Shown here in pieces: positions 4,044 through 48,929 of a stretch of 64,000 nucleotides of DNA. Origin of the DNA: Psammoneis japonica. Its lineage: Eukaryota. The position numbers and the translations under genes were made by a program. Each line of letters begins with the position of its first letter. The first letter of the stretch is position 1. The notes under the pieces are model-generated. The model was not told where the DNA came from, made no database searches, and was given only the letters and a program-made list of their open reading frames with translations. The stretch is taken from assembly GCA_008632985.1 (NCBI GenBank), contig QPGO01000006.1, positions 62,001 to 126,000 on the forward strand. Direction: 5' to 3'.

Positions 4044-5381
4044 ATGAAAATCATGAACTTTGTCCTTGCCATCATTGCTGCCATGAGCGCTGGCGCCATC
4101 ATCAGCCCTCTCTCTGCCTCGTTTGTTGGTGCGACAAAGCGCTGCGTCAGCGCCTTGTCGATCAAGGCTGCCACGGCGACCGACAGCATCGCCACGTTCA
4201 ACCAAGAGCTCCTGCGCAAGTTTTTGGACAACAACAGTTGCTCAGATGTCGATGCTGCCTCCAGCTGCTGCCATGACATCATCAGCAATGCTGCTCCCAG
4301 CACTGTTCCCGAAAACGCCATCATCACTTCCAGCTTTTGCGTTTGTTTTGATGATGGCGACAAGTCTCCGAGTCATGTCCAAGACCTCCTGCGCAACACC
4401 ACGCCCACGATTGCACCAGAAGACGATGCTGACGAGCATTGTGTCTATGACCATTTTGTGCCGGACAACAATGGCGACTCCAACGGCAGCCTCCAGCAAC
4501 TTTTTCTCAACACTGCTCCCGACAGCACGATTCAGACCAAGGGAGTCCCGTTCCAAGATGCGTTCACGATGTTTTTGGAGATCCAGTCGGCCATCTTGAC
4601 GGACACGTGCAGCACTTTTTTGCAATCCAAGTCGGAAGCTTTTCAGCTTTGGTGGAAACTTGCAGACGTATTTTCGAACGACGTCATCGCGCAAATCCAG
4701 GCTCAGGCTCGCGTTCTGCAGGAACGCGACATTTTTTTGCCTTTTTGGAACCCGCTCTTGTCCAACAATCTCTCTGAGATCAAATCGAGTGTTGGACATT
4801 GGGGAAAGAGAGTTGTGGAGATTGCAAAGACTCGGACGAACCTGCCACATGAAGAGGTGTCGCCACTCTGGAACCCAATTTTGTCTGACTGTCGCTCTGC
4901 GATTGAGTGGAAAGCCAAATGTTGGGGGACGAGAGTTTTAGATGCGTTGATTCATGCAATGAACGTTCTTCAAGATTCTGTGCCATTTGTGAAACCCTGC
5001 GAAGAAACCAAGAATGTTGTTGTTGAGGTTCTGGCACCTGCCATTGGAAGTTGGGTCATGACATTGAAACAAACCAGGCTCGCCTTTCGAATCGGTGCTT
5101 TTCAGCACCCGGAAAAATTAGAATGTCAGTTGGGAGGCAATGCAATCGAGACGTCAGTGAGTCTTGATTGGCATCGAGGGGACACATGTTGTTGGTTAGA
5201 TTCAAGCAGAAAGTGTGGTGCAAAATTGCAATTGTCGTTTGCTTGTCTGCAGAAAGTGTGGCACAATGTTGCAATTGTCGATCGCTTTTCTACCGCAGAG
5301 TTTTGCCGCTTCAACCACTGGTCCCAACACCACTTTGTGCAGCCATCGCTCTACCGAGACAGAGTGGAGCTAGGACATTAG
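4044..5381 (+). CDS. Hypothetical protein or partly mutated gene copy with a signal-peptide-like N terminus
   Basis: Long ORF starting MKIMNFVLAIIAAMSAGAII with an internal repeat (PFWNPLLS...WGKRV / PLWNPILS...WGTRV). It has only 2 Tyr and lies in a TA-poor block, so its length may be inflated. Confidence 0.35.
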   Translation: MKIMNFVLAIIAAMSAGAIISPLSASFVGATKRCVSALSIKAATATDSIATFNQELLRKFLDNNSCSDVDAASSCCHDIISNAAPSTVPENAIITSSFCVCFDDGDKSPSHVQDLLRNTTPTIAPEDDADEHCVYDHFVPDNNGDSNGSLQQLFLNTAPDSTIQTKGVPFQDAFTMFLEIQSAILTDTCSTFLQSKSEAFQLWWKLADVFSNDVIAQIQAQARVLQERDIFLPFWNPLLSNNLSEIKSSVGHWGKRVVEIAKTRTNLPHEEVSPLWNPILSDCRSAIEWKAKCWGTRVLDALIHAMNVLQDSVPFVKPCEETKNVVVEVLAPAIGSWVMTLKQTRLAFRIGAFQHPEKLECQLGGNAIETSVSLDWHRGDTCCWLDSSRKCGAKLQLSFACLQKVWHNVAIVDRFSTAEFCRFNHWSQHHFVQPSLYRDRVELGH

Positions 5382-5600
5382 GTGGGAGATGATGCAATCG
5401 AGACGACAGTGAGTCTCAATTGGCGTCAAGGGGATTTATGTTGCCAGTTGGCGTTGAGCAGAAAGCACAGCACAGCGCATTGATCATCATCGTTCTCTTT
5501 TCTGCCATAGAGTTTTCACTTCGACCACCATTCCCAACACCACTTTGTGTGGCTGCAGCTCCAGCCAGTCAGAGGAGAGCCACCAGACCATGGCAGCTAG
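5133..5600. repeat. Diverged tandem duplication, period about 250 bp
   Basis: atgcaatcgagacg-cagtgagtct...gcagaaag...cccaacaccactttgtg occurs near 5140 and again near 5392. Confidence 0.7.
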
Positions 5601-5863
5601 AAGTGGAAGCCACCCTTTAGCGAGTTGCATGTGTGCGCCGCACTCACAATTGCCAGCATGCCATCAAGGGCAAATCATGTGTGTGAAAGGGAAATGGTGC
5701 TCCTGCATTCCCCAGCAAGTGCTTGCACTGCAGTTGGTGAAGGGCCGCTGCAGAACAGCAGCCATGGGAAAATCCGAATCAACAGCAACAATGATTTAAA
5801 CTGTGGTGTTGTTTTTCACACACATCAAATTACAGTGCCGCTCAACGCAATTCACCGCGTGTG

Positions 5864-6908
5864 TCAATTCCAGTGGCCAGTCTGCACAGAACGTGCTTCC
5901 GAAAATTCATCCACATAGATTTCTTCTCTTGGTTTGGGATGATGATGCTGACTCAAACAACCGGCAAAGCATTTGGGATTGATTTCAAATCGTGGCTCGC
6001 CAAATTGGCCCTCCCACAATCGTCGGTTGTTGCATCTGCAGATTTGAACCTCGACATCGCGATTGTTGACACACTCCAAACAAAAGTTGGTTCTGACAAT
6101 TTTGACTTGAACGGTGCTGCAAGATTGAGGTAAAGAGAGAAACTCTGTTGAAGCAATCCCGCACTCGTCCACAACAATGAGTGCGCCAACACGACGACAG
6201 GGATCACAGTCCATGCACCAAGGAATTTTGGCATGACAATCTTGCCAACCATGACATTGCTTTCAACAGAGCTTTGGGAAAAAAGAATCGTTGGCACCGA
6301 AGCTTTTGATCAAAGCCAAAGGATCGCAGTCGGAATCGTCACAACAACAATCAAAGCTTGGCGCTCCATGTGCAGCCTCGGCAACCAGGAATTTCATTGC
6401 AGATGCCGCTGCACTGACAACATTTCAAAGAGCCCTTGCACTCCAGGTTTGTGTTGCAATCACCTTGACAACGACAAAGCGGGGCAAGAGGGGGGTTTGC
6501 CACGTGTTGCAACACAACCTTGCAGTCCTGGGCATCACAACAAAAGACAGCCAGAACCAACAATTCCTTGTCCATGCAACCTGGAATGCAAGCAGCACTC
6601 CCTCCATCACGCTGAAAGGAAACAAGATCTCCACAGCAATCGTTGTTGCAGCTGCAAGTGCAAATGTGCATCAAATCATGGGACCATGACAACAGCAGTG
6701 AGTGAGGAAAGCACAAACAAAAGCCACGGCATTGAAAAAAGACAAAGACTTGCTCTCCCTCGCAATGATCCAATGGAGAACTGGGATCATTGCCTGACCA
6801 ACGCAATGGCATGATGGGATTGTCATTTCCAACATCACCCTCGGGATCATGGCAATGACCAGCATTCTCAGAATCGCACCCCACAACAGTGTCAACCCTC
6901 ACGAGCAT
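5864..6908 (-). pseudogene. Decayed secreted protein with frustulin-like Cys-rich (ACR) repeats followed by a ricin-B-like domain
   Basis: Fragments DCCGDLVSFQRDG...IPGC, LCRCQGDCNTNLECKGSLKC...EIPGC, KLC*KQCHGWQ...WCMDCD and CLSQHHHPK...EEIY resemble diatom frustulin-type proteins (from recall). Stops and frameshifts are present. Confidence 0.65.
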
Positions 6909-7437
6909 GGCACTGCAATTGTGGTCGCCATCACGGCTGTTCGAGTCGGGAAAAGAAAAACAAGTGCTCCATCACAAAGGAGTGCAACTCAACAAAACGT
7001 GGGGTGGGGCACCATTGCCACGAGCCAAATCAGAAACAAACAAACAATGAGTTTCGCGTGCGACCTCAATGGAAATTGTGTCAAATCCACAAATGAAATT
7101 AACGCTCATGACCAAGTCGTGAATGACGTCATCCTTGTTTGTTTGACGGTGGAAAGGGGCAGCTGATCATCGCGGTGAACAGGCAGGGAAGCAGTTGTTG
7201 TTGTTGTTCATGTTGGATGTTGGTGTTGAGAGTTGAGATGAGGCCAGCGAATTGTGGGATGGCACTTTTTCTTTTGCACGCCACAAGTGCAAACTCATGC
7301 AGGGTTCTACGTGCGTCATTCTGTGCGCCGGTGGCATGTTGCAAGATCTGAAAAGACACCAAAGATGCAACTTGAACTTGGACATTTTATTTTGTGTGCG
7401 CATCCCAATTTTTCACACATGCACACGTCACAGGACT

Positions 7438-7712
7438 GTCACTGGAAAACGTGGGAACGTCGCTGGAAAACGTGGGAACGTCACTGGAAAACGTGGGAAC
7501 GTCACTGGAAAATGTGAGAACGTCACTGGAAAACGTGTGGACATCATGACATCCATTCGTGTCCAGCTCTCGGTGCAAACATTGCGTGCATTCTACACAT
7601 GTAGAGTGCATTCCAGAAATCATGTGCAAACTTCAACCATGGGACGTCACTGGAAAATGTGGGAACGTCACTGGAAAACGTGTGGACGTGCATCACTGGA
7701 AAACGTGCAGAC
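7438..7712. repeat. 21-bp minisatellite (gtcactggaaaacgtgggaac), five units plus three more units
   Basis: Directly visible at 7438-7542 and about 7646-7712, with no spacers. Confidence 0.9.
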
Positions 7713-7823
7713 GTCATGCATTCTGCACGTGCGCTGCATGCGCACAGACAGCACCGGTGGCCCACTGCACCAGAAATCATGCACAAATTTCAAAACATCA
7801 CCCATGCGTGCATCACCAGCACG

Positions 7824-8062
7824 CCTCCTTGCACCCAAGTTCAGATGGAGATGAGCCGTGCGATGCAAGACCTCTCATCGGAAAATGTCCTGAGACTTGT
7901 GCCTCTTCCAGAAGTGGGTGCTTCTGGCCCAAGATGGCTGGTCACGGAGACCGGTCAAACCTGTCGGCGTTTTGTCACTCTCACTTTTCCATCTTTGTTG
8001 AGACAGGAACCCTGATCAACGTGACTGGATCATTCCAAAGCATTGGAAAAGCGATTTTTTGC
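7824..8062 (+). repeat. Split direct repeat A1
   Basis: cctccttgcacccaag...aagcgattttttgc, near-identical to 16017-16255. Confidence 0.9.
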
Positions 8063-8082
8063 TCCCTCTCCCTCTCCCAACC

Positions 8083-10559
8083 ATGTCCGACTGCTTCTCC
8101 TCTGGCATTGATGATGGTGCCTTCGTCAACGTGGCTCGCACTCTCGAGTCCGATGTCATTTCTCCATTTTCGGCACAGTCTCCCGCGTTGCCTGCTTCTC
8201 GGGCCCCACCCTCTGCGGTGGGTCATCAGGGGGGTGTTGAAGGCGCAAGCCCCTCTCTTGGGGGCTTAAATCTTGAAGGAATGACTGGTGACATGGGACA
8301 TTCAGACATCGAGCGTGCGGAGCTGGGGGAAGTCATTTCCCCTGACCCGGATTCTGCATTCGATGCCTTGCTCTCGAGAACAGAAAGCGCTCCCCGCGTT
8401 GATTTTTTCGCGGCGAAGGATGGGGGAGCGGGTCGAGGTGCATCTGGCTCGATGGAGGAAGGTGCGTCTCCTTCGTCTGATGCACCTCGTTTTCATGTCG
8501 CCTGGATTGAAGGTGCCGATAACTCCCGTTGCCTTGGGGTTGCCGGGGGTGGAGCCATGTTCTGTTTCAAGAAAGCTGAGGATTGCAAGGTGAAACACAA
8601 GGGCTCGAAGAAGGTCATTCCTTCGGACGGCATGGTGTTGATTCTCAAGACACCAGACACGGCTTTTTGCCAGCCTGCTTTGGATGGCTCGTTTGTCTCG
8701 GCAGACGTTCTGGTTAGCTGGGAAGCGAGTGCCAATGCTTTGGCAGGGTGGCGTCAGAAGTTTCTGGCTCTCGGGAACAGCGACACTTGCTGTCCTACGG
8801 AGGAAGAACATTGGGAGTCTTTGAAGGAGTACAAAGTCGCCGCGGCTTGCAAGACGCCGGCAAAGGGCAAGGATCCCCACAGCAAGGAATTTCCTGGGCC
8901 ACTTTTCAGACACTTCACACCCCACCAGCGGGTTGTTTCCACCACCCCAGCGCAATTTCTGGCCGCGAACAAAAGTCCCGCGGCCCTGGCTGGAGTTGTT
9001 CAGTCCCTGGAAAGAAACTTGACAGAGACCGGCAACACGGTGGTGGAGATGGGCAACAAGGCATGCGTGCACTTCAAGGAATTGAACTCCTCAGTCAATG
9101 TCCTTGGCCGCAAGCTGGAGCAGCTGGGTGCAACTCTCGGTTCTCCTCCACCTGAATTCAATCAGCGAGTGGAAGCCCCTGCGATTTGGGGAACACTTGC
9201 CAATCTGTCAACAGTCGGCTCACCCGAGCGCCCTCCCAGAGACTTGTCCGTGGATTTGGCACAGATGGAGTCGAACATTCATGCCGGTTCCAACAGACTG
9301 GCGTCAAATGTGAACACTGCCATCCAGAACTTGCAAAACAAAATTTCTGGGTTGGCAGCCAAGCACGACATGGACTCTCTGAGGACAGGCATGCTCAAAG
9401 TTTGCAACCAGTTGATTGGCAGAGTTCAGAATCTTGAAAATGCGGGAGCCTCGCTTGGAGGCGCGATTAGATCTGGAAGCGGATTGGGGTTTACAGGGGT
9501 CGGAAGCTTGAGCACCATGGACCGACAGACACGGGATCTGAGCCAAGCGGTGAACGAGTTGAAGTCCAAGTCAGACACTTCGGCTGTCAAGTTCTCTGGG
9601 GTCGGTGTCTCGTCTTTTGGAGAATGTCAAGCCTGGATGGTACAACATTTTTCCTCCAGGGTGCATGGCTGCCTCACAGATGCAAATTTGTCATTGGATC
9701 GAATCACGGGCACGGAACCAGTGGCTTCGCACCATTTTTTGGCTGGTCTGGCTAAGCGCATGGACTTAAAGATCAGCACGGAAGAGGATGCAAGGACTCT
9801 GGCGAGTTTTCAGCACAGCATGCCGAGGATTTTGGATTCGGGCTCGGCAAAAGGAGCGCAGTCGGCGGGCCTCCACCCGTCGTTCTTGGACAAGACAGCC
9901 TCCCATGATCACTGGTCCACTGGCTCAACGGGGACCAAGCATTTTATCATGGATAAAATTGGGACGGTCGAGCGAAATGTTTTGAGCAACATTGCTCAGC
10001 GAATCCCGGGGGGGGGGGGCCGTTTGAAGGCCAGGTGGTTCGAGATGCCCTGTCGAAGTCAGTGGCATTTATTCGGGGTTTGATTCAGTTTATGGATGAA
10101 ACTTGCGAGAACCTGGTGCAACTGAGCAAGTTCTCTCAAAAGCAGGCGTGGTCCTTGACTTCGAAATTGGTGCACAGAATCTTTGATGATCTCAATCAGG
10201 TTCGCTCCGGCATCTTCACATCAATCAAGGGAGCCGATCCGGATGTGGTGTGCAGCCAGATTCTTTGGGCAATTTTTCGGTCTCACGACGTCATGGCCGA
10301 GCACACAGCTCACAACTTCAGGGACCACCCCTCCATGGCATCGGAGCATGTGAAATTTCTGGCTACGAACTCCGGCTTTGAAGCTGTCACTGCTTTGCAA
10401 GCTGCAGTGACGACGCTGGCGGAAAAGGCGAAAAACGCTGGAACCGAAGCTAAGTCGGCGCAGGCTAGAGCTGACACGGCGCACCAGGGGGTGAACAAAC
10501 TGAAAACGGAACTCAAAGAGGTCAACAGGCGTCTGAAAGCGACAGAATCCAAGAAATGA
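8083..10559 (+). pseudogene. ORF1 (gag-like) of the YR retrotransposon, frameshifted at a G12 run
   Basis: Track ORFs 8059-10083 and 10035-10559 join across G12 at 10008-10019. There is a Cys/His knuckle (C...FC...C..KH), coiled-coil-like segments and a C-terminal FRDHPSMASEHVKFL block. Confidence 0.7.
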
Positions 10560-10562
10560 AAC

Positions 10563-13500
10563 GTGGAGGGGGTGGACTCACTGGTGCTCAAAAATGTGGG
10601 GCTTGTTGTTCACGGTCGCAAATTGTTTTCGTTCCACGGGTCTTGCTTGATTATTTCCACCGGCCCCCCCATTTGGCTCCTGGCGTCTGGGCCATCTGAG
10701 TGGCCTCGTGTCGCACTGTGTTGTGTGAACGACCCTCCCACCCCGTTGGAGTGTGCCATCATCCACCTCTGTGAGGGTCAAGAGGGCGCATCTCTTCAAC
10801 ACATCCCATTCTCAGGGATTGGCGATTTGGCGGCTGCCAGTGATGTGGCACTGGTGTCTGGGGACCCGGCATGCTTGGAGAGGATTTCACGATTGGAGTG
10901 CAATGTTCTGACGCACTTGGCCCCGGTCGGCAAGATGTCAAGACGTGGCTTGAAAGGGCTTCAGCACTTGTGTCACGTCGGCCTGCCCCATTCAGCGGTT
11001 GGCAGCGTCACGTCCTTTCGGACGACACTTTTCTGTGTCGGGGGCTCTCTCCCAGATTTTAGGGGGGGGCTGTGTTGCACAATTGGCCACATCATTGACT
11101 GTGAACTGGCAGGACAGCCATGCCCCGCAGAACCTTTGGGGGTGCATTGCAGGGAGGGCGATCACGTGAGCCCACAAGTCACACACCGGCCAGTGTCATG
11201 TCAGTCTTGCCGGTCCCATGCAGGGTGGATCCTCAGGGAGTTGAGTGACGATGAACTCCCAGCCGCGTGGGATTTCCCACTTCGATTCCGGACTGGGGAG
11301 ATGATGGATTTGCTCTCCAGGGAGGTGTGGAGTCAGTTGATCCCACTGAATCTACTTGCCGCGGTCGTGGACCACGTCATTGAGCAGCGCTCAACTGCCA
11401 CCCGGCCGGCGGCCCTCGATCCTTCTTTGGGTCCTTCAGAACCTGCCATTGAGCCGGCTACGGCCACTTGGCTGCCTGGGCTTGGTCGGCATTTGCCTCA
11501 CGAATGGATTGACCTGTCCCTTGTCACTGCCAAGGCGGCAAAAGGGGATTCGGTGTTGCCGCCTTTTCGTTCATGGGACAAGTGGGTTGCGCTTTTGTTT
11601 CCTGTGTTTGGGCCCGTCCTTCCAGCTTTGCGTTTGATGGCTCTTTGGTGGTGGCGCCGCCGTTTGACTCGATCGTTCTTGGGGTGTGTGAGTCGATGCC
11701 ACGGGTGGGAATGGGTTCCTCAGCTGCTGGGCTTGCAACAACGGTTTGGGGACTCTTTGTTGAGTCATCAGGGGGGCTTGCATAGAGACCCACCACTCCC
11801 AGTGTCACTGTTGGACGGGAATCTTGGCGCTGACGTTCTAACCCAAACTTTGGCAAGTTCCTGGTGGAGCTGGGACCGGGGCTCTTCTCTTTTCTTCTGG
11901 CGCTGGCCCCCGCCTGAGCAACGCCAGGCAGCACGCGATGGCCTTCCGATTTTCGTGAGAGGCACGCCACCCAGGAACCGCAAGCGGCAGCGGGTTCGCG
12001 GCTCTGGAAACGAAATGCAGCATGTGGCAACCAAAATCCAGAAGGTCCGAGACCATGGACACATTGAGCGTGGTCCAGTTTCGAGCCTTGCAGACCATTT
12101 TTGGGTCCCTGAGGCTGTGTCTTTGGTCCCGAGGTCTGACAGGAGGATGGAGGAAGTGGTCGAGGACATCCGGATGGTGCACAATGGCACCTCATCTGGT
12201 CTAAATGACGCTCTCTGGGCTCCTTCTTTCTTCCTTCCAACTGCAGCATCGGTCTTGGGGCGCATGACCGAATCAACTTTCTCTGTCGATTTGGATCTGG
12301 GGGGCATGTTTCTAAATTTTTTCATGGACCCACGGATTCGACCTTTTGCCGGCATTGATCTCACTCCACTCCGCAACCACCTCCCATGGCCCTTGGCGAC
12401 TGAACTTCCTGTTGGCATGGAGCGTTGGAACCGTCTGTTTGTGGGAATGAAGCCCAGCCCTTGCAACGTGGTGCGGACGCATTGTTGGGCTGACGAAGTG
12501 GCCCGAGGGGATCCCAGCCGTCCGGGGAACCCTGTGGGCTTCGACAAAGTTCTTTTTAACCTCCCAGGGGATCCCAATTACAAGGTTCAAGACCCACTCG
12601 TGATCAAATGGAACTCCATCCTGCAGATCATCGCTGGAGACATCAAAACCTTCGTAGATGACTTGCGAGGCATGGGAGCCAGTGAAGAAGAGGCGTGGCA
12701 AGTGGCACATCAGATGGCTGCCAGGCTTCAGCATCTCGGACTCCAGAACGCCCCGCGCAAAGTTCAGCCCCCATCCCAGCAGGAGACAGGTGCCTGGGCT
12801 GGTGCCATTTTCCGGGTGCTTGCCCGCAATGTCACCCAATCTCTTTCACAGGCCAAGTGGGACAAGGGCAAGGGCATGATTGAGTCCCTTCTAAGTCATT
12901 ACGATGGAATGGGTGAACTCGGCCTCCCCGAGTGCAACTTTAAGGACCTCGAGCGAAAGCACGGGTTTCTTGTCCATGCCGCCATGACTTGCCCCTTTTT
13001 GACGCCCTTCCTCAAAGGGATTCACCTGACACTGGACAGTTGGTGCCCAAACCGAAAGGTGGACGGATGGGCCATGTCGGACAAGGAGTGCGCAGCATGG
13101 ATCCATCACGAGGCCGACAAGCTTGGTGTTGATCCGTGCGAGCTCGGTGAGAACCTTCAGGACGGCAAGCACCCTGAGACCGTGTGTGCAGCACCTCGGT
13201 CATTCTCCGACTTGCGGGCTTTGCGACGGATCATGGAACCGGATGAGCCCACTGCTGGAATCATCCGCTCCTCCAAGGCAGTGGTGGTTCTGTGCGGATT
13301 CGCTGATGCGTCTGGGAAGGGCCTCGGTTCTTCCGTCCAGACTAAGGATGGGGCAATCGTGTTTCGGATTGGGATCTGGGGCGACGATGATCAATCCAAT
13401 TCATCAAATTGGAAGGAACTTTCGAATGCAATCGATGCAGTCCAGGAGCTGGCTGAGTCGGGGGAAATGGATGGCGCCACTCTCTGTTTTTTCACTGACA

Positions 13501-14363
13501 ACTCAGTCTCAGAGATTGCAGTCTACAAAGGAACCTCGTCGAATCCGATGCTCCTGGAGCAGGTGACACATTTGCGGGTGCTCGAGGCCAAGCACGGGTT
13601 TGTTCTCCACTTGGTTCATGTCTCGGGCAAACGCATGACAGCCCAAGGCACAGATGGGGTTTCTCGAGGCGTCCTCACGGAAGGGGCATTGAACGGGGCC
13701 AAGATGCTCTTGTTTGTTCCTTTGCACTTGGCAGCGACTGAGCGGGCTCCTCTGCTGTTCGATTGGATCCGTTCCTGGGCAGGATTGCCGATGGCCGAAA
13801 TCCTTTCTCCCATCGATTGGTTCCAGAAGGGCCGCGACATGTCTGAGTGGCACTGCCCGCCCTGCGAAGAAGTTGAGATGCCGGTGTTCTGGTCAGGCAC
13901 TTGGGTCTGGGCCCCACCGCCCACCGTGGCTAGAACAGCTCTCGAAGAACTCCGCATCGCCCGCCTCAAGCGCCAGAGATCGTTCCACATTTTTGTTTGT
14001 CCGTGCCCAATGACTCCGGAGTGGCAGAAACAATTGCACAAGGCGGCGGACCTCATCTTTCCGGTGCCGACGGGAGCTGGGGCGTTCTGGCCTGAAGAAA
14101 TGTTTGAACCTTTGCTCATCAGTCTTGTTTTCCCCTTCATCTCTCACAGTCCGTGGCAGCTCCGAGGGACGCCAAAGATGTGCTCTGTGGACTGGGCGTT
14201 GCGAAAAGTGTGGGAGGAGGCTGAAGTGGACGCGAGGGACATTTTGCACAAATTTTGTGCACAGTGTTGGAGATTGGCCTCTGTGTCACAGAGCGTGGTG
14301 TCCAGGGTGTTGTGCTTTGAGCGCAAGCATCACCTTCCACTTGGGCAGGATCCTCCCGGATGA
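10563..14363 (+). CDS. ORF2: reverse transcriptase / RNase H polyprotein of the YR retrotransposon (heavily missense-mutated)
   Basis: RT motifs DLDLGGMFLNF, GMKPSP and FVDD. RNase H motifs FADASGKGLG, SSNWKEL, FTDNSV, HVSGKRM and DGVSRG. Only 3 Tyr in 1266 aa. Confidence 0.85.
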   Translation: MEGVDSLVLKNVGLVVHGRKLFSFHGSCLIISTGPPIWLLASGPSEWPRVALCCVNDPPTPLECAIIHLCEGQEGASLQHIPFSGIGDLAAASDVALVSGDPACLERISRLECNVLTHLAPVGKMSRRGLKGLQHLCHVGLPHSAVGSVTSFRTTLFCVGGSLPDFRGGLCCTIGHIIDCELAGQPCPAEPLGVHCREGDHVSPQVTHRPVSCQSCRSHAGWILRELSDDELPAAWDFPLRFRTGEMMDLLSREVWSQLIPLNLLAAVVDHVIEQRSTATRPAALDPSLGPSEPAIEPATATWLPGLGRHLPHEWIDLSLVTAKAAKGDSVLPPFRSWDKWVALLFPVFGPVLPALRLMALWWWRRRLTRSFLGCVSRCHGWEWVPQLLGLQQRFGDSLLSHQGGLHRDPPLPVSLLDGNLGADVLTQTLASSWWSWDRGSSLFFWRWPPPEQRQAARDGLPIFVRGTPPRNRKRQRVRGSGNEMQHVATKIQKVRDHGHIERGPVSSLADHFWVPEAVSLVPRSDRRMEEVVEDIRMVHNGTSSGLNDALWAPSFFLPTAASVLGRMTESTFSVDLDLGGMFLNFFMDPRIRPFAGIDLTPLRNHLPWPLATELPVGMERWNRLFVGMKPSPCNVVRTHCWADEVARGDPSRPGNPVGFDKVLFNLPGDPNYKVQDPLVIKWNSILQIIAGDIKTFVDDLRGMGASEEEAWQVAHQMAARLQHLGLQNAPRKVQPPSQQETGAWAGAIFRVLARNVTQSLSQAKWDKGKGMIESLLSHYDGMGELGLPECNFKDLERKHGFLVHAAMTCPFLTPFLKGIHLTLDSWCPNRKVDGWAMSDKECAAWIHHEADKLGVDPCELGENLQDGKHPETVCAAPRSFSDLRALRRIMEPDEPTAGIIRSSKAVVVLCGFADASGKGLGSSVQTKDGAIVFRIGIWGDDDQSNSSNWKELSNAIDAVQELAESGEMDGATLCFFTDNSVSEIAVYKGTSSNPMLLEQVTHLRVLEAKHGFVLHLVHVSGKRMTAQGTDGVSRGVLTEGALNGAKMLLFVPLHLAATERAPLLFDWIRSWAGLPMAEILSPIDWFQKGRDMSEWHCPPCEEVEMPVFWSGTWVWAPPPTVARTALEELRIARLKRQRSFHIFVCPCPMTPEWQKQLHKAADLIFPVPTGAGAFWPEEMFEPLLISLVFPFISHSPWQLRGTPKMCSVDWALRKVWEEAEVDARDILHKFCAQCWRLASVSQSVVSRVLCFERKHHLPLGQDPPG

Positions 14364-15235
14364 CCAACAAAACGACGACGGGGCCCAGTCAGGTGAGGAT
14401 GCGGCGTGAATTGAAGACAACATTTGGTTTCGAAAGCCCCAGGACAGGAACAAGTTCACCCAAGCTCGTGCTGGGGACCATCTGATGGTGGCTTTCGAGT
14501 GCAACTCTTGCATTTTTCACAAGTTGCATTGCAGAGACCCTATCCCGACCTCTCCACATGATGAGGTGGCACTGGCTTGCATCAGGCGGATCAATTTGGA
14601 TGCATTCTGGAGTGGAGAAAGTTCTGCGGTGGAGAACAACGCGTCCAAGGTGGCTCGGGGATTGGCCCCATTGGATCGTCCAGGTCTTCATGGCCCTCAT
14701 CTGGAACCAGGCCCCTTGCCTCCGCACGATCACTGCGGATGTGAGGTGGCAATGCAAACAGTCTTGGCATTGACATCCCCCGGTCGCTGTTCAGGCTCGC
14801 ACTCCCAGCTTGACACCGTCAGGAAGCTTCGAACAGCTTGCTCAAACCAGGTCAGGGCATCAGCCTCCGCCAACTCCCGGGCCCTTGCATTGGCGGATCT
14901 TGAAGGCAAGCAATGCCTTCGGACATGCGAGGACCCGTGTGCTTCCTTGTGGTTTCAAAGGTTCATGACTGGATGCAAGAGACGAGTGGGCCAGGATTGG
15001 AGGCCGGACAGGGCAATTTCTGTTCAAATCATGCAACATCTGCTGCCAAGGCTTGAAGACAAGTTTCTTTGAGCCACAAACGCCGGGGATCGGTTCAGGT
15101 TTCTAACCAGGGGCTTCTGTTTTGCAGCGAGCTTTGCCTTGTCCCTTCGTGGGCCAGAGGGATTGCTTGTCGATTTGGGGGCGTTGCGGGAACACCTCCC
15201 TCTCCACAACTCACATGTCATGATCCCACCCGGCT
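14280..15235 (+). pseudogene. ORF3: tyrosine recombinase, disrupted and C-terminally truncated
   Basis: ARAGDHLMVAFEC..C, IRRINLDAFWS, then after TGA at 15070 ALSLRGPEGLLVDL (candidate catalytic Arg). No HxxR/Tyr region was recognisable downstream. Confidence 0.65.
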
Positions 15236-15571
15236 CTGTTCGGTGCCGACATCACTTCTCACGGCGACATCGAAGAGAAGCACGATGTGAGCAGATCGTT
15301 CCGTCTTGGGTCTGACTCGCGAGCTGTTTCCCGGAATGTGTCGGGAAGATGACATCGACGCAGTGAATCAATGGAAAAAGAAGGAGCGAGCTGGGGCCGC
15401 TCGGCCCTCACACAAGATGAGGCAACACTGTGCCGACATCTCTCTCCTCCTTCCCTCTTTCCTGAGACACACACAGGAAATGTGAGACAAGCTTCACGGC
15501 CTGCCTCTTCTTCGTTGGATCTCAAGATTCCTTTTTTCAGGTGGCCACTACCTGGGAGTTCTCATCGGGGG

Positions 15572-16721
15572 GGATTTTGCGCTCAACTTTGCTGTTGGAC
15601 CACGGGAGTCCACCTGTAAAGTCTGGATCAGGTTCCTCGACAATCTGCTTTAGACGACGCATCAGCTGCAAAGTCACAGGAACAGCGTCGGGCGTTGTCT
15701 TTGATTCCAAGTCTGAGAGTCATCTAGCATGGGGTTCCGATGTTGCGAAATGCCGGAGGCACCTCCCACTGGTCTTGATTGGAAGCGCCATGAGCAGATC
15801 CTAGAGTTTCCTGATTGCGAGCCCTCAAGTTTTGCTCGAGACCCTGTGGAGGGCATGGGTTTTACCCAACCCCCCCTTGTGCGGAGTAGAGTGTCACCGA
15901 AAGCTCCACTCTGTGAGACTCCCAAGCATTCTAACACCAAGTTTCTTCTCAGTGGTTCTTGGGCTGGCAGTCCAGGACTTTTGTCGGATGTGGATCGGCA
16001 CCTCACATCATCGAATCCTCCTCGCACCCAAGCCCAGATGGAGACGAACCGTGCAATGCAAGACCTCTCATCAGAAAATGTCCCAAGACTCATGCCTCTT
16101 CCAGAAGCGGGTGCTTCTGGCCCAAGATGGCTGGTCACGGAGACCGGTCAAACCTGTCGGCGTTTCATTGCTCTCACTTTTCCATCTTTGTTGAGACAGG
16201 AACCCTGGTCAACGTGACTGGATCATTCCAAAGCATTGGAAAAGCGATTTTTTGCACCCACCCACCACTCCCTGGATTTTGCGCTCAACTTTGCTGTCAG
16301 ACCACGGGAGTCCACCTGCAAAGTCTGGATCAGGTTCCTCGACGATCTGCTTCACAGACGACGCATCAGCTGCGAAGTCATGGGAACAGCATCGGGCATT
16401 GTCTTTGATTCCAAGTCTGAGAGTCATCTAGCATGGGGTTCCGACGTTGCGAAATGCCGGAGGCACCTCCCACTGGTCTCGATTGGAAGCGCCATGAGCA
16501 GATCCCAGGGTTTCCTGATCGCGAGCCCTCGAGTTTTACTCGAGACCCTGCGGAGGGCATGGGTTTTACCCAACCCCCCTTGTACGGAGTAGAGTGTTGC
16601 CGAAAGCTCTACTCTATGAGACTCCTAAGTATTCTAACACCAAGTTTCTTCTTAGTGGTTCTTGGGCTGGCAGTCTAGGACTTTTATCGGATGCGGATCG
16701 GCATCTCACATCATCGAATCC
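15572..16721 (+). repeat. Split direct repeats B1 (15572-16018), A2 (16017-16255), B2 (16274-16721)
   Basis: ggattttgcgctcaactttgctg...cacatcatcgaatcc occurs twice, flanking the A copy. Confidence 0.9.
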
Positions 16722-16949
16722 AACTGTCCACGAGGATTTACCGTGTTATTTTTTCTGGGCCGTCATCGCCAGCACTGCTTCTAGCCCTACGTTGACACGA
16801 CTCTGAACTCACTCGAAGCACATCGCTCTTCACGCATCAATTCTCGCACACCGAAACTGAAAACAGTCAACTTTCGCAGTTATGTCTGCTGCCGACATGA
16901 TTTGCGCAGCGACACCGTCTAAAAAGGATTGCACAGAAGCAGCAAATCA

Positions 16950-18050
16950 ATGAGGCTCACCTTGACGAGCCTTCTCATCGCGACGCTGTTGAAGGTTCCG
17001 CCCACGACTGCCGCCGACGACGTGCTTCAGTTTCAGCTTTTCTTTGGAGCACAAGACGTTGCGTTTTGGGCTGGATTGAAACAAGGATTTTTTTCGGAAC
17101 AGAATTTAGACGTTAATTATACGTACACGACTAGTGGTGGAAAAATACGAGGCAATCTAGTCGATGGGACCATTGATATGGCCATGGCTGCTGCAGACAA
17201 TAGTGTTGCAATTGCTAAAGAAGGATCACTCATTCTCACGGGAGGAGACTCGAGTTTGAATGAATTTATACTGCAACCACAAGTGAATGGACTGGAAGAT
17301 ATGAAGAATAAGACGTTGATTGTTGATTTTCCAACCACAGCCTATGCCTTGCAGGCATACAAGGCTTTGGATCTGGCCAACGTCAGTCAGGGAGATTATG
17401 ACGTTGTCATCAAGGGAGCGACAAACCTGAGGTATCAGGCAATGGTCAATGCTTCCAACCGAGACCAATTTCATGGAACTCCATTGTATCCCCCCTTTTC
17501 GATCCTTGCAACAGAACGTGATGGACTCAAGAGTGCTGGAAGAATGGTCGATTTGGTTGGAGGATACCAGGCCTCGTGCTTGTTTGCCATGCGACAGTGG
17601 CTCCAGCAGGATGTATCGAATGCTGACAAGGCAATTCGATTTATTGCAGGCTTTGTCAACTCCTTGCGGTGGACCATGGACATGGACAATATGGATTCTG
17701 TTATTGACATTCTCATGGATGAGCTCGAGATTGACGAGGACGTTGCCATGAAAACCTACGATTTGCTCATGGAGCCTGGATTTGGCCTCGAAAAGGACAT
17801 GGAATTCTTGCAAGACGGTTTTTCAACTGTGCTAGGAATTCGAGATCAGTTCGAAGGTGGTGGGCCCTTTGTCTCATCCGATTTTGTGGATTTCAGCTAT
17901 TACAATGCCGCCATGGCAATTGTAAATGGCAAGAACGAGAGCGTGACACAGGCCCCGTCGCCTGCAGGAAAGCTACACTTACTTTCAAATGGCGCACTTG
18001 TTGTTGGCATTGGTGTCATGCTGTCTCTCACTTTCAATGTCGTGCTGTAA
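16950..18050 (+). CDS. Secreted or surface-anchored NMT1/THI5 (SsuA/TauA-like) solute-binding protein
   Basis: Intronless ORF with signal peptide MRLTLTSLLIATLL, motif G(LKQ)GFFSEQNLDV, LEDMKNKTLIVD..TTAYAL, and a C-terminal hydrophobic tail after an S/P linker. Normal TA content. Confidence 0.8.
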   Translation: MRLTLTSLLIATLLKVPPTTAADDVLQFQLFFGAQDVAFWAGLKQGFFSEQNLDVNYTYTTSGGKIRGNLVDGTIDMAMAAADNSVAIAKEGSLILTGGDSSLNEFILQPQVNGLEDMKNKTLIVDFPTTAYALQAYKALDLANVSQGDYDVVIKGATNLRYQAMVNASNRDQFHGTPLYPPFSILATERDGLKSAGRMVDLVGGYQASCLFAMRQWLQQDVSNADKAIRFIAGFVNSLRWTMDMDNMDSVIDILMDELEIDEDVAMKTYDLLMEPGFGLEKDMEFLQDGFSTVLGIRDQFEGGGPFVSSDFVDFSYYNAAMAIVNGKNESVTQAPSPAGKLHLLSNGALVVGIGVMLSLTFNVVL

Positions 18051-18240
18051 CGTTTATGTTTCATAAACCATAATCTAGCACTTCATTCCGAACATTGCCG
18101 AGTCGAAAGGTCTCGGGGACAAATCATTTGATTCTGACGTGTCGCGACTTAATCCATTATGGAAGATTTTGTTCGGGTGTGGAGTCGGTTTACTTTTTGG
18201 AACTATATTTTATGCCATTCACGTGTACACGCATTGGGCT

Positions 18241-19176
18241 TTAAACATCAACCATACCCAGACGTGACTTTAGAACTTCGTGAAACCGCTCAGGATCCGA
18301 AACAAAGAGGCACACTTTTCTTCTACTTGAAGGAGCATGTTCTTCCTCTCCATCATCATCACTGTCGGGCATTTCTTCATCGTCTGGCTGGTGTTCTATT
18401 TCGACATAGAAACAAGTCCTATGGATAAAATCTCGAATGCAAACGTTGTTACCTCCTCGGAGAATTTTTGTCTCTTTAAGCTCCACGTTGGTTATACTCC
18501 GAAAAAATACCTCGTTATGCTCATACATTGGACAGTCCGTGGGAGGGAAGGGATTTCGCAACCCTTGAGCTAGAATCCAAACTCCTTTGCACAACAAGCT
18601 TGGACACCAATCCGGGGCATCTGGATGGGCATTATGTTCTGTAGGGAGAATCAGTTTCGAATATGTGATTGAAATAGCTGAAACAAGAATCTCTTGTTTT
18701 AGGCTGGGGTATTGCTCGTTGAAACGTATCCAACAAGTCTTGCGATACCAGTTTCCGATGGAGATGAGTGATATTAACATCCAGATAACTGCCAATGAAA
18801 TCCACTCTCCCGCATCAACGTATTCCGGAAACCTTACGCTCAACACATGATTTAAGACAACGAGGGATATGGAGCATATGAACGGATAAACGACGAATCT
18901 CAAAGACAAGTGTGTCGACCACGCTAAAACGCCGTTGTCAAAAGATGGATCGTAGCAAAAGACGTCGATTTTCTCATCAACAATATCTCCGTTGCATTCC
19001 ACAGGTGCAGTCTCTGTAGCCATCGCTACGACCATATCGTTGCACCCGGAGTTTCTTGCGCCGTGGCTCGCCGACAAATAATGATAAGAACCTTTCCACT
19101 GCTGCCACTTATTCAAAAGACGGTTTGGTTGTGCGATGAAGGGAGTGTTTATGCCGCGGTCCGCGGTCGTCCTCAT
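18241..19176 (-). CDS. Hypothetical membrane protein (start uncertain)
   Basis: 311-aa ORF in normal-composition DNA with two or three hydrophobic segments and an acidic patch. Convergent with the upstream gene. Confidence 0.55.
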   Translation of the reverse strand: MRTTADRGINTPFIAQPNRLLNKWQQWKGSYHYLSASHGARNSGCNDMVVAMATETAPVECNGDIVDEKIDVFCYDPSFDNGVLAWSTHLSLRFVVYPFICSISLVVLNHVLSVRFPEYVDAGEWISLAVIWMLISLISIGNWYRKTCWIRFNEQYPSLKQEILVSAISITYSKLILPTEHNAHPDAPDWCPSLLCKGVWILAQGLRNPFPPTDCPMYEHNEVFFRSITNVELKETKILRGGNNVCIRDFIHRTCFYVEIEHQPDDEEMPDSDDDGEEEHAPSSRRKVCLFVSDPERFHEVLKSRLGMVDV

Positions 19177-19334
19177 TCATGCAATGACCGGGATTGACAA
19201 ATAAGATGACCGGGATTGATGCGTATTGTACGTACGTGATGCCGACGTGACTCAAACGCGACCATTTGATAATTTTCACTTTTCCTCGTTCGTGACATGA
19301 ATGAAACCAGGTGTCTACATCATGATTGATTTGA

Positions 19335-22300
19335 GATGCCAATGATGATGGTGGCTTTTTTCCAATTGCTAATCGCTGTGCGCCCCCAGCAACAAACCCC
19401 CAACAAAGCTGCTGCAAACATCAAAAAGATCCACACAGAGTCTGTGGGAGTTGGCACACTGATCCAGCCCACACAAGGAAATGAAGTGGCGGTGCAAGGA
19501 AGTGAATGTCAGCACAGCTCCACATGCTGGTGCACACTCCAGGAGCCCCAAAGGCAGGTGTGGTGCTGGGCTTGCAAATTTTGCATTTGTGCTGGCTCTG
19601 CAGAAAAGCCGTTGGGCCGCAAATGGGTCGACGACTGCCAGCAGAAAAAGAGGCAGTGCCCGAAGTGCGCCAGCTCCTCTGCTGTGCTCAGGCACTTTCT
19701 TGCTCTCTCCAGACACTGAAGAAAATGTCTGGCGCCAATCTTTGTTCTCAGGAACAGCTGAGAGTGAGGTTTTCACTCATTTGCAAAAGGGAGGATGATG
19801 GTGATTTTTGAAAAGGATTGCTCACAAAAATGAGCGTGTGGCTTTTGTGCGGCGCATGACCAAAAAACCCTTTGTTGCAGCCCAGCAGCAGCCCACGAAG
19901 GTGTGCAAACACTTGTCAGCTGCAGAGCTGTTGTTTGCACTGAGAGTCAATGGCAAGCACCACCCTTTTCAGGCAAAGTGCACAAGGCCAGAGAGGAGTT
20001 TCTGCATGGAGCACAGCAGGGCTGGGGGTTCTTGACCAAGCATGTTTTTCACCAGCATGAGCAGCTGGAAAACAGGCTGCACAAGATTTTCACCCAGGTG
20101 GCATGGGGCAGACTGTTCAAGAAGACAGCAGCAGAGCTCTGCAGGAGTGTCAATGGTGCCCGACTCTCTGCAGCCACAAGGCTGCCAAGTGTGCAGCAGA
20201 TGAAATGAGAAACATGCCCCTCCTCTTTCTCTTTGATGGAAAATGTTTCCACTGTCATTGCCACTGCAAAAGAGAGTGCAGCCAACAAAATGAATGGGCA
20301 CCAATCAAGTTGTGCTTGCACTGCAGGCCGCACAATGCCAGTCATTTGCAGCCTGACAACCACCCTGGAAAAGCGTTCCACAGATGGAGACAACATGCTG
20401 AGCTCCCCTTGGTTGTTGGCAATCAACATGATCTGAGAGCAGCCAGCTTTGTTGGTGTCCAAGGGATGAAGTCATCAAATTGGGTCAAAAGCACTTTTAA
20501 AAAAGGTGAGGTCAGTGCCAAACTTGTGCTTGTGGGCAGCAAACTGCAGCAGCTGCTCTTCAAAGGTGGCTCTTGTCTCTGTGCACAACATGCAACTGGG
20601 CTGGACTTTGGGCAGCCTGAGGCTCTGTTTGCAAGCAAGGTGCTTGTTTGGAGAACTCAGTCTTTGTCTTGTGTGGCCAGGCTGAGTTGCTTGACAACAT
20701 GAGTGCAACTCTCTGCACACCTCCAACGGAGGAAATGACAAGCTTGTTTTCTCACTGCATCTTTGAAAGCACATTCAAAGAGTTCCCGGCTGCTTTTGTT
20801 CATGCCACACATTGCGCAAAAGAGAGGACAGAGTCTTTTGGTGTGCTGTTGGAGGATGTTGTTTTTGCTCTTTTGAGAGACATGAGCCTCAACATGTCAG
20901 CAAACACAAGGAGCTTGCAAGCAGCCACCCAGGCAATTGAGGCGCAAGCTGACAAACTCTGTGGTCTTCAACAAAAGCAACAAAGACTTCAAACTCAACA
21001 TTTGCCTCACTTTCAAAGCAGTCCAGAGCACATTTTGTCTTGTTTCATCATTGATGCATGGTGCTTGTTTGGGAGCATGGCTGGCAGCAACACCCACTTG
21101 TGCCCCAGCTCCAAAGTGGCACCAAATTCAGAGACACAACAAGGGCAGCATTGTTCTGCAGACAGAGTGGCACATTCTCAAGTGTGCTCAAAGCACAACA
21201 TGAGGCCAACCAGCAAACTCATGAGGTGTCAGCCACATCTGCAGGGAGGGACATTTCTGTGATGTGCAAGCTGTGGATGTTTTTGCAGGCCTTGAAATGT
21301 TTCTTTCTCCCACAGATGGCAACAAATGGCAGCATCTGGCATTCAACTTTCCTCGAGGCCACGTTTGTTCAAATCATGTTGTTCTGTTGAAAGACACACT
21401 GCTTCAAATGTCAACTTTGTGTTTTGAAATCTGCCAAAGTGAAGTGCCATGGGGCAGTGTTGGCCCAACAAATCCTGCAAAATCGCTCATGATGGCTGTG
21501 GAGGGGACACTGCTTGCTGCTTCAACAGATGCCAAATGTGGACAAAGTTGTCATGAAAGCTGGTCCTCTGTGCGGGGCTCTGTTGTTGCCAGCTTGTGTC
21601 AAAATTTGTGGGGATGACCCCCCCCCCCCCTCCAGCAGCAAGCAACAGCAACAGTGGCGCACATGGCAGTTTTTGCTTGTCAGCAAAGACACATCAGCTG
21701 ACCTGGCGCCAGACTTGCCCACATTCAAGGGAGGTCATTTGCTGCTTTTTGAAGCTCAAATTTGACCAAACAGCTTGTGGTTTGAATGATTTTTCCTGAA
21801 TTTCACTGTGCTTCACCATGGCAAAAACATCAAGCCACAAGTCTGTGATGGAGGCAGTCCATCTGTCAACTCTCATTTGTTTTGTGTTTGTTGTGTGTCA
21901 AAGGTCACGCGTGCATCAAATTTTTGAGAACAGACTGCTGTGTTTTGGAGCCACATCAATTTTGCCATCATTGCCGTGCTTTGATCACGGCACCTGATGT
22001 TCTTGTTTTTGTGCATGGTCACGGGCGAGTGCAGACAAGCTCTGCTTTTAAAAACAAACACCACAAATGTCCTCATTCAAATGCCAATTTTCTCACATGA
22101 CTTCACAAAACAGCCAAACAGGTTGAGCTTGGTGGCAGCTTGAAAAGTGCGGCAAAGCCCAGCTTTAAAGAAGTTGAGAGAGGGGCGGTCACTGGCAACC
22201 TGAAAAAATGAAGAAATTCAGCACATTGACAGTGTGACACATGCACACAAGATGCGCAGAAATGTGCCAAATCTTGGAATCTTTTGTTGCTGTCTGTCAC

Positions 22301-25758: not shown

Positions 25759-25839
25759 TTCATTGTGTCCAATAAGCGGCGAACCGAACCTCAGTCGTGA
25801 GTCGAGAATGAAATGACCGAGACATTTTTTTTTTATGGC

Positions 25840-48890: not shown

Positions 48891-48929
48891 TGAGCACCTC
48901 AATTGTGTCACAAAAAAGTCATCAGCTGA

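Follow-up and report, generated by a model that had tools for sequence, protein, structure and literature searches.

Two copies of one repeat, both belonging to a single retroelement in a diatom genome, differ at sites where one reads TA and the other TG or CA, and the question raised by this locus is in which direction, when and on which template such changes were made. The element occupies positions 7824-16721 of the window, i.e. of the whole 64-kb stretch of DNA that was analysed, and self-alignment resolves it into split direct repeats in the order A1-ORFs-B1-A2-B2. Its parts are as follows (o/e, ratio of observed to expected dinucleotides; RT, reverse transcriptase).

7824..8078, + strand: A1, left split direct repeat, pairing with 16017-16272
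8002..10083, + strand: ORF1 frame of 693 codons from stop to stop, putatively gag-like, TA o/e 0.12
10560..14363, + strand: ORF2 frame of 1267 codons, decayed RT/RNase H-type protein as judged by its homologues
13945..15485, + strand: ORF3 remnant, decayed tyrosine recombinase gene, found by tblastn with ORF3 of the related element L019
15572..16018, + strand: B1, internal copy of the right split direct repeat, entirely within a TA-poor block, 7 TA left
16017..16272, + strand: A2, internal copy of the left repeat, 0 TA
16274..16721, + strand: B2, terminal copy of the right repeat, 13 TA left, containing a block border

The end of B2 at 16721 is exactly the point of the B1/A2 junction, B1-A2 match the joined ends, and the related element L019 has the identical repeat layout. 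No further copy of the element was found in the 64-kb window besides the A and B pairs. The ORF2 frame has 198 homologues at E <= 1e-3 (top identity 48%), the named ones coming from the diatoms Fragilaria and Cylindrotheca; among the 120 listed of these 198, 2 have a PF00078 entry, and F-V-D-D and D-A-S motifs can be read by eye in the frame. A Pfam scan of the window ORF2 frame and of six RT homologues gave no match, nor did Pfam match ORF1, the ORF3 pieces or 14 ORFs from TA-poor blocks, and an RT profile found nothing among PDB sequences. With ORF3 of L019 as query, tblastn finds a match of 417 columns in the window (39% identity, E 1e-88), interrupted by 3 in-frame stops, and a second homology piece lies at 15348-15485. 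Relatives' ORF3 found nothing among PDB sequences, and their structure model (mean pLDDT 78) resembles Cre, XerH and lambda integrase (Foldseek E 5e-5, probability 1.00). The segment 7824-16721 is thus a dead retrotransposon of the DIRS (tyrosine-recombinase) order with the split-direct-repeat layout, for which the names PAT-like or Ngaro-like are presumably appropriate. It shares with this order the split repeats, three frames, of which the second is putatively RT/RNase H-like, and, in relatives, a recombinase fold in the third, but departs from it in that Pfam is blind to the window RT, its six homologues and the recombinase, and the subgroup is named by layout only. The long ORF1 and ORF2 frames had suggested an intact young element; this was dropped, since frames stay open where TAA and TAG are erased.

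B1 and B2 are 92.65% identical over 449 columns, the 33 differing columns comprising 3 gap columns and 30 substitutions, every one of them a transition. A1 (7824-8078) and A2 (16017-16272) are 91.4% identical, and their 239-nt core has 17 substitutions, again all transitions, with TA absent from both copies and 4 sites reading TG in one and CA in the other. Both alignments bear out the repeat positions given in a preliminary description of this DNA, which was made from the sequence alone. Classed by dinucleotide, the mismatches of both pairs are transitions only and lie mostly at YpR: 28 of the 30 B substitutions fall within 192 YpR positions and 2 within the other 254 (Fisher p = 3e-9), and in the A pair 13 fall in 98 YpR positions versus 4 in the other 141 (p = 0.004). 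Even at the transition share found among family copies (454/543), 47 transitions out of 47 in A and B together have a probability of 2e-4.

The B pair has 12 TA-versus-TG/CA sites in total. The nine at which the preliminary description had read TA in B2 and TG or CA in B1 are all present, at 15834, 15881, 15907, 15913, 15923, 15927, 15950, 15973 and 15983 of B1, as are the two where B1 has TA and B2 has CA (15617 and 15802), to which a third beside an indel at 15651 is added. The two sites described as TG in one copy and CA in the other are likewise found (15596/7 and 15895/6), with a third at 15677/8. Absent from that description are 10 sites of the B pair with CG in one copy and TG/CA in the other. 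In A and B together there are 7 TG-versus-CA sites against 1.2 expected if CpG decay alone were at work (P = 2e-4), an excess that fits with independent TA loss in both copies; one such site, 16598/9, falls in the part of B2 taken to be protected (see below) and counts against this protection. That B1 and B2 were identical when the element inserted is assumed, with support only from related elements, whose own repeats are 98-100% identical. Split-repeat elements may copy both B1 and B2 from RNA, and some differences could be inherited rather than made in place.

The preliminary description took TA to be the ancestral state, and this is borne out by the coding frames. At the 7 RT-frame columns with Tyr in at least 70% of 14 homologues, the window has His at 3, Cys at 3, Phe at 1 and Tyr at none, versus Tyr kept at 7/7 and 5/7 in two control relatives (L019 and L034, respectively) by the same procedure. 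Tyr makes up 0.24% of ORF2 residues, versus 1.5-3.7% in 120 homologues (120 listed of 198). Codon polarisation of single-step changes at a threshold of 0.7 gave 9.7 TA>TG, 8.0 TA>CA, 16 CG>TG/CA and 0 CA/TG>TA changes, i.e. a TA-loss total of 17.7 versus 0 TA-gain; at a threshold of 0.5 the figures were 27.7 TA-loss, 23 CG-loss and 0 TA-gain. In the same codon polarisation the two control relatives had TA-loss of 2.0 and 1.0. All of 80 metagenomic relatives have a normal TA content (o/e 0.40-0.77), versus 0.10 in the element interior. By the same polarisation, a decay of CpG to TpG/CpA is also present in the element, and 11 of 40 conserved Arg columns are now His, Cys, Trp or Gln. The preliminary description had further held that a family consensus of TG/CA at the sites in question would point to TA gain in B2. 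At 16584 (TA in B2, TG in B1) the consensus is indeed G, read by 1049 of 1454 family depth units in 20 contigs, 16584 being the one such site within 40 of the 543 rows of differences. Taken literally, this is the refuting outcome, but the comparison was judged invalid as a test because decay in one direction has acted on all copies alike. Simple deamination of C to T, with TA gained, was dropped as a candidate after the low TA content of the element, the near-complete depletion over several kb and the Tyr replacements had been seen.

A second pattern concerns where in the window TA has been lost. Segmentation divides the 64 kb into 44,050 bp (69%) of TA-poor sequence (TA o/e 0.01-0.12) and 19,950 bp of TA-normal sequence (0.40-0.92), with sharp block borders. 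TG/CA o/e is 1.48-1.82 in the nine TA-poor blocks versus 0.94-1.55 in the TA-normal ones, CG o/e in TA-poor blocks falls to as low as 0.09, and depletion is near complete across several kb, where both TA and CG o/e are 0.03. Three unstranded features are of particular relevance here.

451..16500: TA-poor block comprising the element and older decayed DNA on its left, TA o/e 0.08, CG 0.62, TG/CA 1.48
16501..19400: TA-normal block that takes in the last ~220 bp of B2, intergenic DNA and two host genes, TA o/e 0.54, CG 0.98
38669..39564: decayed paralogue of the host gene at 59943-61739, within a TA-poor block

One border thus falls inside B2. The final TA lost relative to B1 is at 16506 and the first TA kept in B2 and lost in B1 at 16537, which places the border near 16506-16537, about 16530, the segmentation giving 16500. 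Opposite B2 from 16530 onwards, B1 is derived (TG/CA) at 12 of 12 polarisable sites and B2 has TA or CG, versus a split of 5 to 5 between B1 and B2 upstream of about 16530; normal TA content runs from the end of B2 on into the flanking gene. Since the border lies within B2 and only B1 is derived beyond it, targeting followed position rather than homology, and this position effect supports the claim that the changes were made after integration. The accompanying claim, that they were made in DNA and that RNA editing or RT error is unlikely, is strengthened by TA depletion outside retroelements, namely in a host-gene paralogue and in satellite arrays. The paralogue (38669-39564) is 71.6% identical to 60211-61148, and the 30 TA of the normal host gene read 10 TG, 14 CA, 6 other and 0 TA in it.

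The TA-poor blocks hold the retroelement, satellite arrays of about 190 bp and the pseudogene; the TA-normal blocks hold recognisable host genes (fasciclin, GT8, FkbM-methyltransferase and NMT1-like, the last being the ORF at 16923-18050, NMT1/THI5-like by Pfam). The process thus appears to be directed at foreign or presumably silent sequence and to spare host genes. As tRNA and Rfam scans of the window gave no match, neither of the two TA-normal islands corresponds to a known RNA gene. Two TA-rich, unmutated MITE-like inserts were also seen within TA-poor blocks, and a continuous, purely positional process would have to treat them as very young.

The edited strand prefers the motif 5′-T-A-Y-3′. 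Survival of TA in TA-poor blocks is 0-0.03 for RTAY versus 0.26-0.32 for YTAR; the base 3′ of the edited A is C in 16 cases, T in 12, G in 4 and A in 2; and where TAY occurs on one strand only, the TAY strand is the edited one in 15 of 17 contexts (p = 0.002). TAA and TAG are found at 1.3 and 1.6 per kb in TA-poor blocks, versus 10.3 and 9.2 in normal blocks, and this erasure leaves long spurious open frames in decayed DNA.

The sequence itself was compared with three sequencing runs from one sample and study, none of which is on record as RNA. Contigs of run X1 show 0 differences from the TA-poor interior (10533-10840 and 13030-13319) at a depth of 52-55, the unique flank having a depth of 60.7 in the same run; this run may be the assembly's own source data and as such is no independent confirmation. 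Its k-mer contigs reach 315 kb, which indicates accurate reads. Run X2 yielded one contig only, at 16821-18890 and a depth of 372, over the neighbouring gene and uninformative on expression of the element, and run X3 yielded no contig matching the window. Altogether 532 contigs were matched to the window, and 454 of the 543 differences among family copies are transitions.

These observations bear on several other readings of the B1/B2 differences. A RIP-like C-to-T process, with TG/CA ancestral and the 3′ part of B2 having gained TA from CpA/TpG, would account for differences that are all transitions at RIP's dinucleotides and for the G in most of the family depth at 16584, but is scarcely credible given an outgroup polarisation of 0 TA-gain versus 17.7-27.7 TA-loss and the replacement of conserved Tyr by His or Cys. 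The 3′ part of B2 also has CG against TG/CA in B1 at 3 sites, so that T-to-C changes would be needed as well; its TA level equals that of the adjoining host genes; all decayed blocks in the window are TA-poor and none is TA-rich; and RIP mutates both homologous copies, whereas here the internal copy alone was changed. An artefact of base modification in silenced DNA, by which TA and CG would be miscalled as TG/CA in a truly unmutated genome, is improbable too. It would suit a pattern limited to possibly modified repeat blocks, strand-specific miscalls could yield the alternation of TG and CA, and all runs found come from one sample; however, it sits poorly with X1 contigs that are exact in the TA-poor interior at single-copy depth, with the near-complete depletion, and with the in-frame stops and transversion-level decay of ORF3. 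The same signature is moreover described from Illumina mutation-accumulation lines of another protist.

It is equally doubtful that the changes preceded integration, through ADAR-like editing of sense or antisense RNA, RT error or change in a master copy, and were inherited via separate copying of B1 and B2. The family is multi-copy (532 contigs) with mostly transition differences, TA/TG and TA/CA polymorphisms at 16584 and 16590 are common to other copies, and a preference of ADAR for U immediately 5′ of the edited A is quoted in a preprint (10.64898/2026.01.13.699255). Against this, the boundary at about 16530 runs on into the unique flank and hence follows genomic position, TA is also depleted in a host-gene paralogue and in satellite arrays, and relatives' repeats are 98-100% identical. 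Moreover, conserved residues of the RT, RNase H and recombinase frames have undergone inactivating changes, and the element's own proteins could thus not have made a copy from such a template. A different chemistry of the same process has a low but appreciable probability: an enzyme acting on thymine in 5′-R-T-A-3′, for example by oxidation or glycosylation followed by error-prone repair, would produce T-to-C changes. As the dinucleotide TA is palindromic, A-to-G in TAY is indistinguishable from T-to-C in RTA on the other strand. Nothing in the window speaks against this chemistry, and adenine is preferred only by analogy with tRNA deaminases and on the proposal made in the preprint.

We therefore favour, with a probability of about 0.8, the explanation that the B1/B2 differences in this dead DIRS-order element were produced by post-insertion, block-confined hypermutation of TA to TG/CA at the DNA level, whose polarity, dinucleotide specificity, TAY preference, block structure and position dependence are documented above. 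On this explanation, B1 and B2 would have been nearly identical at the start; after insertion, the element together with 69% of the window would have been hit by a block-confined mutation of TpA to TpG or CpA, i.e. A:T to G:C transitions on either strand, each copy mutating independently, which would confine the differences almost entirely to dinucleotides derived from TA and CG. A slower decay of CpG to TpG/CpA ends at the same border. The last ~190 bp of B2, adjoining the start of a putatively expressed host gene, would lie outside the targeted block and would for this reason have kept TA and CG. By analogy with tRNA adenosine deaminases, which act in a U-A context, adenine in DNA may be deaminated enzymatically to inosine, a TadA/ADAT2-like or other deaminase being the candidate. 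Diatom transposons are CG-methylated, and the CpG decay is probably deamination of 5-methylcytosine. Targeting would be by a silent-chromatin or methylated state and not by sequence homology.

The closest known case is that of Bigelowiella natans, in which, according to a preprint, de novo mutations are nearly all TpA to TpG/CpA in silent viral inserts, one hypermutated region is single-copy, and adenine-to-inosine deamination of DNA is proposed (10.64898/2026.01.13.699255). In both, as far as the preprint's text goes, A:T to G:C changes occur almost exclusively at TpA, yielding TpG or CpA by strand, are restricted to foreign or silent regions and do not depend on repeats, and TpA transitions go together with clustered TpA depletion and CpA and TpG enrichment, in B. 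natans in clusters with RT and DDE genes. The host here is a diatom (stramenopile) and not a chlorarachniophyte, and the targets are a tyrosine-recombinase retrotransposon, ~190-bp satellites and a pseudogene, as opposed to giant-virus or virophage inserts. Depletion of TA is deeper here (o/e 0.01-0.12 over 69% of the window, versus the 0.45 given for the B. natans NCLDV region). The TAY preference is a feature of the window, as is CpG decay with shared borders, the term "CpG" being absent from the main text of the preprint (10.64898/2026.01.13.699255). Fungal RIP is similar in being transition-only, in inactivating transposons in place and in leaving blocks of skewed dinucleotide content. In contrast, RIP makes TpA from CpA/TpG and creates stop codons, whereas the process in the window destroys TpA and removes TAA and TAG: 0 TA-gain changes were found, and the blocks are TA-poor. 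Both homologous copies are hit in RIP, but here B1 was changed and the homologous end of B2 spared (12 derived sites in B1 versus 0 in B2 from 16530 onwards), and only one of two paralogues has decayed. In the literature no report of TpA-directed A:T to G:C hypermutation was found besides the B. natans preprint, and none for diatoms.

It is tempting to speculate, at somewhat less than even odds, that diatoms, and perhaps many SAR protists, have a genome defence guided by silent chromatin and free of homology requirements, which would edit adenine in 5′-T-A-Y-3′ DNA, disable transposons through missense replacement of Tyr by His or Cys and at the same time remove TAA and TAG stops; the B1/B2 pair would then place its border, beside an active promoter, to within ~30 bp. 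The occurrence of the same signature, in much stronger form, in a diatom genome would make this a candidate for a genome defence shared across lineages and not a peculiarity of a single species. The repeat pair contributes a border within a repeat, which argues for position over homology, as well as a border common to CpG decay and the T-A-Y motif, and thereby narrows the search for the enzyme. Gene callers and judgements of ORF intactness may be misled by the long open frames that removal of TAA and TAG leaves in decayed DNA, and consensus-based ancestral states of transposon families would be biased towards TG/CA.

The B1/B2 repeat pair is one detail of a far larger pattern of TA loss. The observed/expected ratio (o/e) of TA is 0.25 for the whole window, 0.09 at 1-7400 and 0.10 in the interior of the decayed tyrosine-recombinase (DIRS-order) retrotransposon, with TG and CA at about 1.5 alongside this scarcity. 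Plotted at 500-bp intervals, TA content forms a sharp-bordered mosaic across the window, and a two-state segmentation divides it into nine TA-poor blocks (44,050 bp) and TA-normal sequence (19,950 bp). TA-normal blocks carry recognisable host genes (NMT1/THI5-like, fasciclin, family 8 glycosyltransferase, FkbM methyltransferase); TA-poor blocks contain the retroelement, ~190-bp satellite arrays, a decayed host-gene paralogue and unrecognisable DNA.

Dinucleotide o/e in the two block states
TA-poor blocks: TA 0.01-0.12; CG 0.09-0.77; TG/CA 1.48-1.82
TA-normal blocks: TA 0.40-0.92; CG about 1; TG/CA 0.94-1.55

Features compared in the window
7824-8078: A1, left split direct repeat
13945-15485: remnant of the third reading frame, 3 in-frame stops
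15572-16018: B1, right repeat, joining A2
16017-16272: A2, copy of the left repeat
16274-16721: B2, copy of the right repeat, ending exactly at the point that corresponds to the B1/A2 junction
38669-39564: decayed host-gene paralogue, within a TA-poor block
59943-61739: intact host gene, frame of 599 codons without Pfam match; 60211-61148 compared with the paralogue

TAA and TAG, at 1.3 and 1.6 per kb in TA-poor blocks versus 10.3 and 9.2 per kb in normal blocks, are about 7 times rarer there. Long open frames therefore arise on both strands of TA-poor blocks, in many frames (7000-17500, a stretch of 10.5 kb, has 34 that run for 100 codons or more), and they are no evidence for intact genes. 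The satellite-like tandem arrays at 48151-50012 and 51087-51946 have periods of 182-192 bp and lie in blocks almost devoid of TA and CG (o/e about 0.03 in 500-bp bins). CG o/e is 0.1-0.3 in some TA-poor blocks (451-3500, 19401-23000, 25651-32250) and 0.6-0.8 in others (the retroelement, 37151-44500). Two MITE-like inserts of about 390 bp with matching terminal inverted repeats (30001-30400, 50651-51050) lie within TA-poor blocks, yet their own TA is normal (o/e 0.88-0.92) and their CG high (1.40-1.48); tRNA and Rfam scans gave no match. Either they inserted after the last round of hypermutation or they are spared by it.

Repeat comparison gives the order A1, three reading frames, B1, A2, B2 for the retroelement. 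B1 and B2 align with 30 substitutions, all of them transitions, and 3 gap columns. All sites quoted in the preliminary description recur in this alignment: the nine with TA in B2 and TG or CA in B1, the two with TA in B1 and CA in B2 (a third adjoins an indel), and the two with TG in one copy and CA in the other, to which a third is added. That description lacked the sites with CG in one copy and TG or CA in the other.

Dinucleotides at aligned sites of B1 and B2
TA in both: 4
TA versus TG/CA: 12
CG in both: 17
CG versus TG/CA: 10
TG versus CA: 3

The substitutions demonstrate the specificity of the mutation: 28 of 30 fall within the 192 YpR-dinucleotide positions and 2 within the other 254 (Fisher p = 3e-9), so outside TA, CG, TG and CA changes the two copies were once nearly identical. 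Near-identity of the B (and A) repeats at insertion is supported, without proof, by related elements from metagenomes: the A...B-A-B layout recurs in L019, whose repeats are 100% identical over the 127 nt assembled, and the A repeats of two other relatives are 98-99% identical. A1 and A2 differ by 17 substitutions, again all transitions, with TA in neither copy and four TG-versus-CA sites. The seven TG-versus-CA sites of the A and B pairs compare with 1.2 expected from CpG decay alone at one rate for all CpGs (about 6-fold, P = 2e-4), and fit independent TA loss in both copies on opposite strands.

Since a pair of sequences cannot tell TA loss from TA gain, outgroups were used. The frame at 10560-14363 (1267 codons) has 198 homologues. 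At the seven columns with tyrosine in at least 70% of 14 homologues, the window has histidine three times, cysteine three times, phenylalanine once and tyrosine never; histidine and cysteine correspond to TAY to CAY and TAY to TGY changes. Tyrosine makes up 0.24% of this frame versus 1.5-3.7% in all of the best 120 of the 198 homologues. Polarisation of codons with single-step differences gave 17.7 TA losses, 16 CG losses and no TA gain at a threshold of 0.7, and 27.7, 23 and none at 0.5; two control relatives gave 2.0 and 1.0 TA losses and kept tyrosine in 7/7 and 5/7 columns. TA o/e is 0.40-0.77 in 80 of 80 related elements from metagenomes. The host-gene paralogue pair, one of whose two homologous copies was hit, has TG (10), CA (14) or another dinucleotide (6), never TA, at the 30 TA sites of the intact copy. 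These lines show the polarity of the mutation: TA is ancestral and was later lost. A RIP-like gain of TA by B2 is rejected, as the outgroups show TA loss and no gain.

The retroelement family is multi-copy, with 532 aligned contigs whose copies differ by 454 transitions and 89 transversions. The preliminary description had taken a TG/CA family consensus as grounds against TA loss, and at 16584 (TA in B2, TG in B1) G indeed accounts for 1049 of 1454 depth units. At 16590, where B1 and B2 share TA, C accounts for 1065 of 1672 (both sites are among the 40 of 543 differences listed). The consensus argument is not accepted, since a family majority does not give the ancestral state when every copy decays the same way. 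Only three runs contain this stretch; they come from one sample and one study and have no recorded library type. Contigs of one of them, X1, show no difference from the TA-poor interior at a depth of 52-55 (60.7 in the unique flank) and reach 315 kb, which argues for accurate reads rather than miscalling, with the proviso that the assembly may itself derive from X1.

The TA-poor block enclosing the retroelement stops within B2, between its last TA loss relative to B1 (16506) and the first TA that it keeps and B1 has lost (16537). If TA and CG are treated as the ancestral states, the derived sites upstream of 16530 number 5 in B1 and 5 in B2; downstream B1 is derived at 12 (9 TA, 3 CG) and B2 at none, with one further site changed in both. 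The normal TA of B2's end continues through the flank into the next gene. This border bears out the timing proposed earlier: the element mutated where it now lies, once it had inserted, and TA loss and CG loss stop at one border. Targeting is by position and not by homology, since B2 matches B1 no less well at its end than elsewhere. A contig of a second run, X2 (type not on record), has high depth and covers only 16821-18890; it begins 100 bp beyond the retroelement end and looks like the neighbouring gene's transcript.

Survival of TA (poor/normal ratio) is lowest in RTAY (0-0.03) and highest in YTAR (0.26-0.32). The paralogue and B pairs yielded 34 polarised events. Oriented on the A to G strand, these have C 3' of the edited A in 16, T in 12, G in 4 and A in 2; where T-A-Y occurs on one strand only, editing had affected that strand 15 times out of 17 (p = 0.002). 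A to G in T-A-Y is by symmetry indistinguishable from T to C in R-T-A. The adenosine that tRNA adenosine deaminases modify, A34, follows U33, and Y-A-C was the favoured context of early TadA-derived base editors; as a lead only, the T-A-Y motif would fit such adenosine-deaminase contexts.

The third reading frame is conserved among relatives, and a model of it based on 28 relatives, with a mean pLDDT of 78.3, gave structural matches to Cre, XerH and lambda integrase (Foldseek E 5e-5, probability 1.00). Near its C-terminus, a nearly invariant tyrosine column reads R-Q-R-Y in a relative and R-Q-H-C in the window. Pfam scans gave no match for a reverse transcriptase or a recombinase, and 2 of the 120 homologues listed for the frame at 10560-14363 carry a PF00078 annotation. 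This large tyrosine-recombinase retroelement family, with three frames of about 760, 1300 and 550 codons, is common in aquatic metagenomes and diatoms and almost unseen by Pfam. Directly upstream of A1, at 7433-7687, lies a 21-bp tandem repeat of five copies with a sixth 124 bp on. The nearest named relatives are diatoms both for the reverse transcriptase (Fragilaria, Cylindrotheca) and for a host gene of the window (Epithemia 42%, Thalassiosira 36%). None of the matches approaches 100% identity, and the genome, which is diatom-like, differs from the published one of Bigelowiella natans.

In Bigelowiella natans, according to a preprint, two integrated viral regions mutate in mutation-accumulation lines at a rate of ~6e-7 per site per generation, nearly always by A-to-G or T-to-C changes and always at TpA; 124 genomic clusters are TpA-poor and CpA+TpG-rich, TpA-poor genes are enriched in RT and DDE domains, and the candidate enzyme is ADAT2-like (10.64898/2026.01.13.699255). 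The main text contains none of the terms 'diatom', 'stramenopile' and 'CpG', and our literature search returned no second report, and none joining TpA, TpG and CpA with a diatom. Relative to that main text, the window represents the same kind of hypermutation in a different, diatom-like lineage, with deeper TA depletion, transposons and satellites among the sequences hit, and CpG decay, a sequence motif and a border in addition. The observation in the preliminary description is confirmed and its interpretation supported. The chemistry would be adenine deamination, and the guide may be chromatin state. TA loss seems to have been complete long before CG loss, and CG content may therefore indicate how long ago a block was silenced, in the manner of a clock.
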